Source: an uncultured Planctomycetia bacterium
GTDB lineage: Bacteria; Omnitrophota; Gorgyraeia; JABMRN01; RBG-13-46-9
Assembly (NCBI GenBank): GCA_964519195.1
Contig: CAZFLU010000001.1
Coordinates: forward strand, 1-25,772
DNA length: 25,772 nucleotides
Reading direction: 5' to 3'
Below, in pieces: positions 2,455-4,043 of this stretch. Each line of letters opens with the position of its first letter. The first letter of the stretch is position 1. The position numbers were made by a program, and so were the translations under genes. The notes beneath the pieces were generated by a model. That model was given only the letters and a program-made list of their open reading frames with translations. It was not told the DNA's origin and did not search any database.

Positions 2455-3439
2455 AGAAGCCCCGATCAGCGCGCTTGAAGCGCTTCATGGGAAAATAAGG
2501 AATAACTCAAACTTGCGGGAAGCATTGCGCGTTAAAGAGATATTTCTTTTTACAAGTTGCAACCGCGCGGAAATATACGCGATAGCGGAAAACTACGAAA
2601 CTGCCGTAAAAGAGACAGCTTATATAAAGGGAATGTTTTTTCCGTATTTGAATAACGCGTATGAAAAATACGGCTTTCCGGAAGTCTTAACGCATGCTTT
2701 AAGACTTGCCTGCGGCATTGAATCGCAGCTTGCCGGAGAGCGGGAGATCCTTACGCAGCTTACAGCGCGCGCTAAAGAACTTGCGCCATTGAGCAGAATA
2801 CGCGTTCTATGGGAATTCGTTATCGCTCAAGCGGTTGAAATAAGAAGAGAAACCGGCATTGATGAATTAAGATCCAACATAGCGGACGAAGTGCTGGAGG
2901 ACATAAAAGGACGTATCCGGCCGGGCGACAGCAAAAATGTGATCATATTCGGGACAGGTAAAGTCGCTAAGCTTTTTAGCCTGAACAAAGAATCGGGGCT
3001 GAATTTCATATTTGTTGCGCGGAAAAACAAAAAAAAAGCGACGCGGCTTGCGAAAAGTACGCACGGTAAAGCTATCTTACCGGACGAAGTTAAAAACTTT
3101 GCGGGGCAAACATCTTTCGTCGTATGCGCGACAACAAGCCCGCACTACGTAATAAAAAATAATCGCGCGAATATTTTTAAGAATACGAATGGCAAGACGT
3201 TATATATTTACGATCTTGCGTTACCAAGGGACGTTGATCCTCTTGTAGGAGGCCTTGAGGGCGTGGTGTTGCGGAACTTATCCGGACTACAGGAAAATTT
3301 TTCCAAAAGTAACGCGAAAAATATTTATACGATCAAAACCGCAGAGGCGTATATAGACAGGATCTGTTTTGCGTATAAAAACCAGGAAGGGCGCAATGAA
3401 AATAAAATTAGGCATAAGGCCGAGCCGGCTCGCGTTTAA
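2423..3439 (+). CDS. hemA: Glutamyl-tRNA reductase, short form lacking most of the C-terminal dimerisation domain
   Basis: TSCNRAEIY (catalytic Cys), GIESQLAGEREILTQ, FGTGKVA NADPH motif, DLALPRDVD; 338 aa. Confidence 0.85.
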   Translation: MIFYLIGISFKEAPISALEALHGKIRNNSNLREALRVKEIFLFTSCNRAEIYAIAENYETAVKETAYIKGMFFPYLNNAYEKYGFPEVLTHALRLACGIESQLAGEREILTQLTARAKELAPLSRIRVLWEFVIAQAVEIRRETGIDELRSNIADEVLEDIKGRIRPGDSKNVIIFGTGKVAKLFSLNKESGLNFIFVARKNKKKATRLAKSTHGKAILPDEVKNFAGQTSFVVCATTSPHYVIKNNRANIFKNTNGKTLYIYDLALPRDVDPLVGGLEGVVLRNLSGLQENFSKSNAKNIYTIKTAEAYIDRICFAYKNQEGRNENKIRHKAEPARV

Positions 3440-4043
3440 ACAAGCAGAAGAAGTGATAAAAATGATGCCGGCGCATACTTTTGATATAACGACCATTGAA
3501 ACCGAAGGCGACAGAGACAAAAGAACCCCGCTTTTTTTAATAGAAAAAAGTGACTTTTTCACAAAAGATCTGGAGAAATCGCTTCTTAACGGCGCGATCG
3601 ATGCCGCGATCCACAGCGCAAAGGATATCGAGGAAGAAATGCCATCATCTTTTGTCATAGCCGCATTAACGGCCGGGCATATTTCTGGCGAGGCGCTTGT
3701 CTCAAGGATGGGAGCGGGGCTAAAAGGCTTGCCGGAAGGAGCCTTCATGGGAACAAGCAGCAGGAAAAGGAAAGAAAGCATCATGAAGATCAGGGATGAT
3801 CTTGTTGTTAGGGATGTAAGGGGAACCATAGAAGAAAGATTGGAGCAGCTTTTTAACGGAGATTATGACGCGATAATAATGGCGGCAGCGGCCTTGATCC
3901 GACTTGGCCTTGAACATCTCATAACAGAGCTGATACCTAAAAATATAATGGAACCTCATCCTCTTCAGGGCAGGCTTGCGGTGCAGATATTAAAAGAAAG
4001 AAATGATCTAAGAGAAATTTTTAAGGATGTAGATGGGAAATAA
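3396..4043 (+). CDS. hemC: Hydroxymethylbilane synthase (porphobilinogen deaminase), two-domain form with no cysteine
   Basis: GIRPSRLA, TEGD, FFTKDLE, AIHSAKD (catalytic Asp), GTSS, RGTIEERL, AALIRL, PLQGRL. SD AGGAAGG before ATG 3396; 215 aa. Confidence 0.85.
   Translation: MKIKLGIRPSRLAFKQAEEVIKMMPAHTFDITTIETEGDRDKRTPLFLIEKSDFFTKDLEKSLLNGAIDAAIHSAKDIEEEMPSSFVIAALTAGHISGEALVSRMGAGLKGLPEGAFMGTSSRKRKESIMKIRDDLVVRDVRGTIEERLEQLFNGDYDAIIMAAAALIRLGLEHLITELIPKNIMEPHPLQGRLAVQILKERNDLREIFKDVDGK

Follow-up and report, generated by a model that had tools for sequence, protein, structure and literature searches.

The solved structures of hydroxymethylbilane synthase (HMBS; HemC) are all three-domain, with the dipyrromethane cofactor carried on a conserved cysteine of domain 3 (PMC7959689). 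During elongation the cofactor is displaced and is held by lysines of the lid loop and arginines of domain 3 (PMC7959689), and it is domain 3 that sets the stop at the hexapyrrole stage (PMC7959689, PMC3945110). The closest curated entity to the protein described here is the NCBIfam model NF002202 (PRK01066), a short, 241-position "hydroxymethylbilane synthase". That model was presumably built on chlamydial HemC. Our full-text searches found no paper on a HemC lacking domain 3, and no published biochemistry for short forms of either the NF002202 type or the type described below. Here we analyze such a gene, which we call hemC-short, in a 25,772-nucleotide stretch of DNA ("the window": positions 1-25,772, forward strand, of contig CAZFLU010000001.1, assembly GCA_964519195.1) from an uncultured Planctomycetia bacterium placed by GTDB in Bacteria; Omnitrophota; Gorgyraeia; JABMRN01; RBG-13-46-9. 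The gene encodes a genuine and conserved variant of the textbook enzyme, whose mechanism is a puzzle. What is new here is a residue signature for its class, the rejection of a cysteine at position 100 as the cofactor anchor, and a count of Cys-free members.

A HemC that ends before domain 3

The hemC-short gene occupies positions 3396 to 4043 of the window on the forward strand and encodes a 215-residue putative porphobilinogen deaminase that consists of domains 1 and 2 only. In Pfam it matches PF01379 alone (190.5 bits), over residues 3-206 and profile positions 1-206 of 207; this family, whose Pfam name is "dipyrromethane cofactor binding domain", is the domain 1-2 module. The hemC model TIGR00212 is passed with 193.2 bits against a cut-off of 164, only its positions 1-215 of 293 being matched, and NF002202 aligns over positions 21-229 of 241 with 172.1 bits, below its curated cut-off of 251 bits. 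No domain 3 (PF03900) was found in the protein with the Pfam and NCBIfam profiles, and the cofactor cysteine (Cys242 of the GGC loop, E. coli numbering) is missing along with every other cysteine: the count in the 215-residue translation is zero, and an alternative upstream start, TTG at 3369, would add nine residues, still without Cys. Full-length relatives carry the motif GGCQ(L/V)P at a point where the short forms have already ended. The motif PLQGRL spans residues 189-194, 21 residues remain between it and the C-terminus, and the TAA stop (4041-4043) lies inside the next open reading frame (ORF), cobA, whose ATG is at 4033. A first-pass annotation made from the DNA alone had described a HemC of this length with no Cys and no domain 3, ending about 20 residues past PLQGRL with a stop that overlaps the cobA start, and all of these features hold. 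Cys-free proteins are not rare in this genome, where 12.5% of frames of 180-260 amino acids lack the residue; what makes the protein notable is the loss of domain 3 and, with it, of the cofactor cysteine.

An AlphaFold2 model of hemC-short, calculated from an 80-sequence alignment, has a mean predicted local distance difference test score (pLDDT) of 95.1 and a predicted template modeling score (pTM) of 0.88. Over domains 1-2 it superposes on E. coli HemC (1PDA) with TMq 0.90 and a root-mean-square deviation (rmsd) of 1.7 Å, and on human HMBS (7CCY) with TMq 0.94 and rmsd 1.2 Å; the fold of these two domains is thus alike in the short and the canonical proteins at about 30% sequence identity, and the model predicts an intact two-lobe cleft. 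The HSAKD motif with the catalytic Asp77 is retained, as had been noted from the sequence together with several active-site Arg residues, and the whole substrate site, Arg, Ser and Gln included, is present: D77, R8, S10, Q16, R142 and R148 correspond to E. coli D84, R11, S13, Q19, R149 and R155.

The genome that contains the window is a metagenome-assembled genome (MAG) of 1.28 Mb in 274 contigs, about 80% complete. It has exactly one PF01379 locus and no other HemC homologue. We searched all six frames of it for domain 3 with PF03900 at E≤1 and with our own hidden Markov model (HMM), trained on the phylum's full-length HemCs and used with --max, and found none. A split gene with domain 3 encoded in trans was considered and rejected, neither profile having matched anything in the genome. 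So was a second hemC: the first-pass annotation had allowed for a full-length copy beside an inactive and poorly conserved short one, but none was found in this roughly 80% complete genome, and the short protein is strongly conserved. As judged from the gene content, no gene other than hemC-short looks like a candidate for the porphobilinogen step.

A fixed and widespread class

More than 120 clusters at 50-60% identity came up in a sequence search. Each is about 215-217 amino acids long with PF01379 only, and many are named Candidatus Omnitrophota; the nearest relatives of hemC-short are only about 60% identical to it. The view that the truncation is fixed rather than an error is borne out by these clusters, and an extension of the ORF into a GGC-containing domain 3, which would have undone it, is seen in none of more than 100 independent assemblies. 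The first-pass annotation had, on the other hand, treated hemC-short as a single odd gene, and this has to be revised: the gene belongs to a large class of wide phylogenetic spread.

In a sample of 151 genomes drawn evenly from the phylum, PF01379 is present in 88 and PF03900 in 52, and about 36 genomes have the short form only. PF03900 was not found anywhere in the sampled short-only genomes (about 35, mostly more than 90% complete). A maximum-likelihood tree built from domains 1-2 of 21 short and 15 full-length sequences splits the two forms with support of 100/100 and puts the window's protein in a 12-row sub-clade of its own operon type (97/94).

The genomic settings of the short forms vary. 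Twenty fetched loci fall into four arrangements. The first is the operon type of the window, with a free-standing cobA and no hemD, found in at least 11 related genomes and, as a partial copy on a 3-kb contig, in a twelfth (G125). In the second, hemC-short is followed by a CobA-HemD fusion, while the third consists of HemC(d1-2)-HemD fusions of about 452 amino acids and the fourth of a HemC(d1-2)-CobA-HemD fusion of 689. An exhaustive profile search for the HemC family gave 12,523 matches at E≤0.001, full-length forms included, and the best 150 of these include HemA-HemC(d1-2) and SirC-HemA-HemC(d1-2) fusions. These fusions to HemD, CobA-HemD, HemA and SirC-HemA tie the short modules to the pathway. 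All of the fused forms belong to the same short-HemC clade as hemC-short and share its signature residues (below); they differ in that the window's module is free-standing, with neighbors that are separate, translationally coupled genes and with no HemD partner.

Beyond the phylum, we scanned species-representative genomes and classed the modules with our own domain HMMs. HemC modules lacking domain 3 occur in Planctomycetales, Verrucomicrobiota, Kiritimatiellia, Lentisphaeraceae and an uncultured Chlamydiae MAG, and also in Paludibacter, Bacteroidales, the isolate Prevotella sp. DNF00663, Spirochaetes and Candidatus Termititenax. Five of these representative genomes were searched whole; PF03900 was found in none of them, and their only HemC homologues are short. 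Domain-3-less HemC forms a well-separated clade with hundreds of members, free-standing or fused, in Omnitrophota, other PVC phyla, Bacteroidota, Spirochaetota and a Chlamydiae MAG.

Chlamydiae-like short HemCs deserve separate mention. The first-pass annotation had stated that chlamydial HemC is also short and has a Cys near its C-terminus, and this is borne out only indirectly, by the uncultured Chlamydiae MAG, whose short HemC does have a Cys close to its C-terminal end, and by the existence of NF002202. The Chlamydiae-like proteins score 198-226 bits on NF002202, higher than on TIGR00212. Like that model, hemC-short has the two-domain architecture of about 220-240 amino acids that stops shortly past the final helix of domain 1, but it scores below the NF002202 cut-off and higher on TIGR00212, falls in a separate sub-clade (the Omnitrophota operon type), and lacks the C-terminal-tail Cys of the Chlamydiae-like examples L055, L060 and L065.

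Cys-free members, which the first-pass annotation had proposed counting in intact siroheme operons, are a minority: among 140 Omnitrophota short modules, 12 lack Cys within the module itself and 9 throughout the protein. Several independent contigs carry two other fully Cys-free homologues, P0054 and P0113, within an intact operon of the window's type.

Some individual cases are worth recording. Three of the fusions, P0122 (684 amino acids), P0123 (491) and P0140 (558), are of the SirC-HemA-HemC(d1-2) and HemA-HemC(d1-2) kinds, present the gene order of the window as one polypeptide, and end where domain 3 should begin. G125 has a full-length hemC (contig C45) in addition to the short one (C28:1736-2335; locus L040), which lies on the 3-kb contig with hemA-hemC-cobA-hemB and may be either a binning contaminant or part of a true second pathway. 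In G123 the short hemC (C13:13629-14237; locus L032, 6021-6638) has an in-frame TGA and a shortened end (205 amino acids), and may be a pseudogene or reflect a sequencing error. G071, of the same family as the window's genome, has hemC-short with a CobA-HemD fusion and a 296-residue sulfite/nitrite reductase (locus L024); its HemC is 49% identical to the window's, and the operon types seem to move between lineages. In the isolate Prevotella sp. DNF00663 the short HemC (locus L066) has a HemD beside it, and one natural HemC(d1-2)-HemD fusion lies at 5969-7327 of locus L041. Finally, a sub-family of C-terminal short-HemC modules (P0131, P0137, P0153, P0166 and others) has a conserved, Cys-free tail, PLDLG-x-R-x-G-(L/M)-PWA.

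Residues kept and lost

We compared 171 short modules with 64 full-length HemCs, using E. coli numbering and taking the human equivalents from PMC7959689. Fifteen positions, R11, S13, Q19, F62, S81, K83, D84, S128, S129, R132, R149, R155, R176, Q198 and G199, are 98-100% conserved in the short modules and likewise in the full-length forms. They include the substrate site (R11, S13, Q19, D84, R149, R155), pyrrole site 1 (S81, K83, R132, R176, G199) and most of pyrrole site 2 (K83, S129, R132, R155), which the short class has thus kept. In hemC-short itself, the catalytic, substrate-site and listed pyrrole-site residues of the canonical enzyme are all present.

Other positions that are conserved in full-length proteins are changed or relaxed. 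Arg131 (100% in full-length forms) is Lys in 54% of short modules, Arg in 16% and Asn in 14%. Asn151 (100%) is Asn in 63%, Asp in 20% and Thr in 11%, and Thr154 (100%) is replaced by Glu in 90% (and by Asp in a further 5%). Gly173 (98%) becomes Ala in 92%, and Arg101 of the hinge (human Arg116; 100%) becomes Ser in 80%. The G-G-K59-G segment of the lid loop, with Lys or Arg in 78% of full-length forms at Lys59, reads E-x-(S/T)-D in the short class (80% S/T). In sum, the signature of the class is an acidic lid, E-x-S/T-D-F-F, Glu for Thr154, Ala for Gly173, a residue other than Arg at Arg101, and H-P-L before Q-G; further class-specific conservation (window numbering) is seen at H188 (86%), D41 (95%) and K42 (91%). 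The window's protein carries the full signature (E50, S52, D53, F54, F55, E147, A166, G94 and H188-P189-L190). Compared with the canonical enzyme, it lacks domain 3, the Cys242/GGC loop and any Cys, and has Lys124 for Arg131, a residue required for dipyrromethane assembly and binding, Ser with acidic neighbors for Lys59, Gly for Arg101, Glu for Thr154 and Ala for Gly173.

Several of the altered positions serve the cofactor in the canonical enzyme. In site 2, human Arg149 (E. coli Arg131) binds ring c1 of the cofactor through its acetate group (PMC7959689), and the R131L and R132L enzymes fail to hold the cofactor (PMC3945110). With the cleft residues kept and the cofactor-related positions changed, the short class has retained the polymerising core and has shed or relaxed what serves a permanent primer.

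No column of the 171 short modules contains a conserved Cys. Two candidate substitutes for Cys242 were considered and rejected. A Cys at position 100 occurs in 80% of Omnitrophota short forms but in 53% of the phylum's full-length forms too; where it is not Cys the residue is Ala, Ser or Val, and it is Ala in the window's protein. As for a Cys in the C-terminal tail, which might have acted as a miniature domain 3, few modules have one: about 9 of the 140 Omnitrophota forms (two mis-anchored motif matches discounted), 8 of 45 C-terminal modules among the representatives, and the Chlamydiae-like group. The window's protein does not have it.

How the chain might be built

We consider it reasonably likely that hemC-short is an intact, selected two-domain porphobilinogen deaminase, the only one in its genome, that feeds a siroheme operon, has lost cofactor handling and works by a non-covalent, primer-free mechanism. 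Conversion of four porphobilinogen molecules into hydroxymethylbilane would agree with the operon, in which the pathway context is like that of the canonical enzyme, and with the absence of a second HemC homologue. The most economical reading would be an active bilane synthase without a thioether-anchored dipyrromethane, and hemC-short and its relatives probably build the bilane chain in a manner not yet described. In such a mechanism, porphobilinogen itself, rather than a thioether-bound primer, would initiate the chain; further units would be condensed head to tail on a chain held non-covalently through its carboxylates in sites 1 and 2; free bilane would be released at the tetrapyrrole stage; and ring closure, by HemD where present or otherwise, would end the chain in place of the steric stop of domain 3. 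The first-pass annotation had proposed a non-covalent primer, a cofactor-free mechanism or a partner as yet unrecognised; this set of proposals fits the residue signature and is in that sense partly supported.

Several points weigh against this reading. The apoenzyme of canonical HemC is inactive without its cofactor. Canonical chain length is set by domain 3, so an enzyme without a primer would have to stop after four units by other means. Pyrrole sites 1 and 2, being complete, would serve as well for a dipyrromethane held tightly without a covalent bond, or for a covalent link other than through a thiol. The activity of the class is assigned by sequence and context; no HemD is detectable here that would account for the fate of a free bilane; and the genome is only about 80% complete.

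The best-surviving alternative, which we nevertheless regard as unlikely, keeps covalent catalysis and replaces the thiol: the first pyrrole would be attached to Glu147, to His188 in the PHPLQG hinge or to Lys42 in GDKDK, and a labile ester or N-link could then hydrolyse and free hydroxymethylbilane with no permanent cofactor. The three residues are conserved in the class, position 147 with 90% Glu and 5% Asp (full-length forms have 100% Thr there), H188 with 86% and K42 with 91%, and E147 lies beside Arg148 (E. coli R155), an invariant residue in the region of the substrate site and site 2. None of them is universal in the wider class, however: the hinge reads PAGQG, PEGQG or PTGQG in Verrucomicrobiota, Kiritimatiellia and Lentisphaeraceae modules (L069, L079, L085, L092, L111) and in a Spirochaetota one (L112), and several modules have Ser or Gln instead of Glu147. 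We also know of no precedent for such a link, which counts against the idea.

A partner supplied in trans, such as CobA, HemD, HemA or an unrecognised small protein, might instead provide a Cys loop or a cap for the cleft. The overlap of the hemC stop with the cobA start and the fusions of the short module to CobA, HemD, CobA-HemD, HemA or SirC-HemA in relatives would agree with this, as would the fact that losing domain 3 uncovers a surface which the canonical enzyme keeps buried (PMC3945110). But the fusion partners vary and are attached at either end, so that no single partner can be obligatory; many modules are free-standing; and neither PF03900 nor a domain-3-like frame was found in the window's genome, nor PF03900 in the sampled short-only relatives. 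We think a partner a little less likely than a non-thiol link.

It is very unlikely that hemC-short is no bilane synthase at all but a decayed or repurposed porphobilinogen-binding protein in an organism that obtains its tetrapyrrole otherwise. Two features held to define the enzyme are indeed missing, and no HemD, hemE or CbiX was detected in the genome; yet the catalytic Asp is invariant, together with 14 further cleft residues, across 171 sequences whose overall identity is only 40-55%. The gene also has a fixed place between hemA and cobA, its substrate is made in the operon by hemB, relatives fuse it in frame to pathway enzymes, and no other HemC homologue is present. That a normal hemC merely looks short here, through misassembly, a frameshift or faulty gene calling, is scarcely credible even in a MAG fragmented into 274 contigs: length and end point are the same in more than 120 independently sampled clusters and in about 36 genomes of our sample, cobA leaves no space for 90 further residues, and no frame of the genome has domain-3 coding potential.

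What is established is a large natural clade, spread over several phyla and often providing the sole HemC, with no domain 3, no conserved Cys and a preserved catalytic cleft. If the short forms are active, the cofactor is not essential for bilane synthesis and the minimal polymerase is a 215-residue, two-lobe protein. That would reopen the questions of chain-length control, of the purpose of the cofactor and of how the canonical enzyme evolved, and would offer a compact Cys-free enzyme for pathway engineering. The window's example is of the most extreme kind, having no Cys at all and an operon that also lacks HemD.

The missing HemD

HemD was not found in the operon or elsewhere in the genome with PF02602 at E≤1 or with a phylum-specific HemD HMM run with --max (best E 0.5), nor was PF02602 found in at least 10 relatives that share this operon and have genomes 94-99% complete (G015, G037, G039, G061, G069, G117, G123, G135, G145 and G147). 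It was likewise not found in Candidatus Termititenax (G153). The sister operon types, by contrast, carry CobA-HemD or HemC-HemD fusions. The absence of HemD bears directly on which product the bilane made by hemC-short becomes. In HemD-less operons the short HemC, alone or with CobA, might itself deliver uroporphyrinogen III, or siroheme of the type-I isomer might be made and used, either of which would imply a cofactor-free polymerase with a new chain ending; we regard this as a long shot.

A partial parallel exists in Plasmodium falciparum HmbS, for which likewise no UroS/HemD gene has been identified next to HemC (PMC8698207). Unlike hemC-short, PfHmbS is a full three-domain, cofactor-bearing enzyme; it was once proposed to have uroporphyrinogen-III synthase activity as well, and according to the title of PMC8698207 it has none. 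It is relevant here only as a caution about HemD-less interpretations.

The siroheme operon of the window

The hemC-short gene lies in an operon of overlapping forward-strand genes in the order cysH-sirC-hemA-hemC-cobA-hemB-hemL-SiR, SiR being the sulfite/nitrite reductase gene. Upstream, here and in relatives, are genes for an Rrf2-family regulator (538-960, +) and a DUF2061 protein (1014-1235, +). The first sulfur-assimilation gene of the operon, cysH (1254-1979, +), encodes a (P)APS reductase (PF01507; NF002537, 171 bits), and sirC (1957-2454, +) a 165-residue precorrin-2 dehydrogenase of the CysG N-terminal type (PF13241; TIGR01470, 112.5 bits). The product of hemA (2423-3439, +) is a short glutamyl-tRNA reductase of 338 amino acids with GlutR_N and Shikimate_DH domains that matches TIGR01035 over positions 3-330 of 416; its C-terminal dimerisation region is missing, and the 3′ end of the gene overlaps the start of hemC. 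A 338-position NCBIfam model for short glutamyl-tRNA reductases, NF001909, is matched only weakly by this protein.

Downstream of hemC-short, cobA (4033-4761, +) encodes a 242-residue uroporphyrinogen-III C-methyltransferase with no HemD fusion (PF00590; NF004790, 263.6 bits). It is followed by hemB (4748-5665, +), for a 305-residue porphobilinogen synthase that would supply the substrate of hemC-short (PF00490, E 3.5e-120), and by hemL (5658-6917, +), for a glutamate-1-semialdehyde aminomutase of 419 residues (NF000818, 497.8 bits). The last gene of the series (6899-7621, +) encodes a 240-residue siroheme-type sulfite/nitrite reductase (PF03460 and PF01077), the presumed user of the siroheme. 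This small reductase has one ferredoxin-like half-domain and one 4Fe-4S/siroheme domain, and a similar protein of 231-252 residues is encoded in every operon of the window's type. On the 3′ side of it lie genes for an O-acetylhomoserine sulfhydrylase, a PALP (cysteine-synthase-type) enzyme, a metX-like alpha/beta-hydrolase and metW. Taken together, these annotations point to a sulfur-assimilation operon with its own siroheme production. Neither hemE nor CbiX was detected in the genome, and siroheme therefore looks like its sole tetrapyrrole end product; a full-text search on siroheme in Omnitrophica returned nothing helpful.

Two features of related operons (L024, 7608-9025; L025, 2684-3655; L037, 4515-4982) concern sulfur metabolism. 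In some relatives a PHO4-family transporter, possibly a sulfate permease, is inserted after cysH. The operon type with the CobA-HemD fusion also encodes a Prok-JAB protein, a hint that cysteine may be made by a sulfur-carrier route of the CysO/Mec kind.

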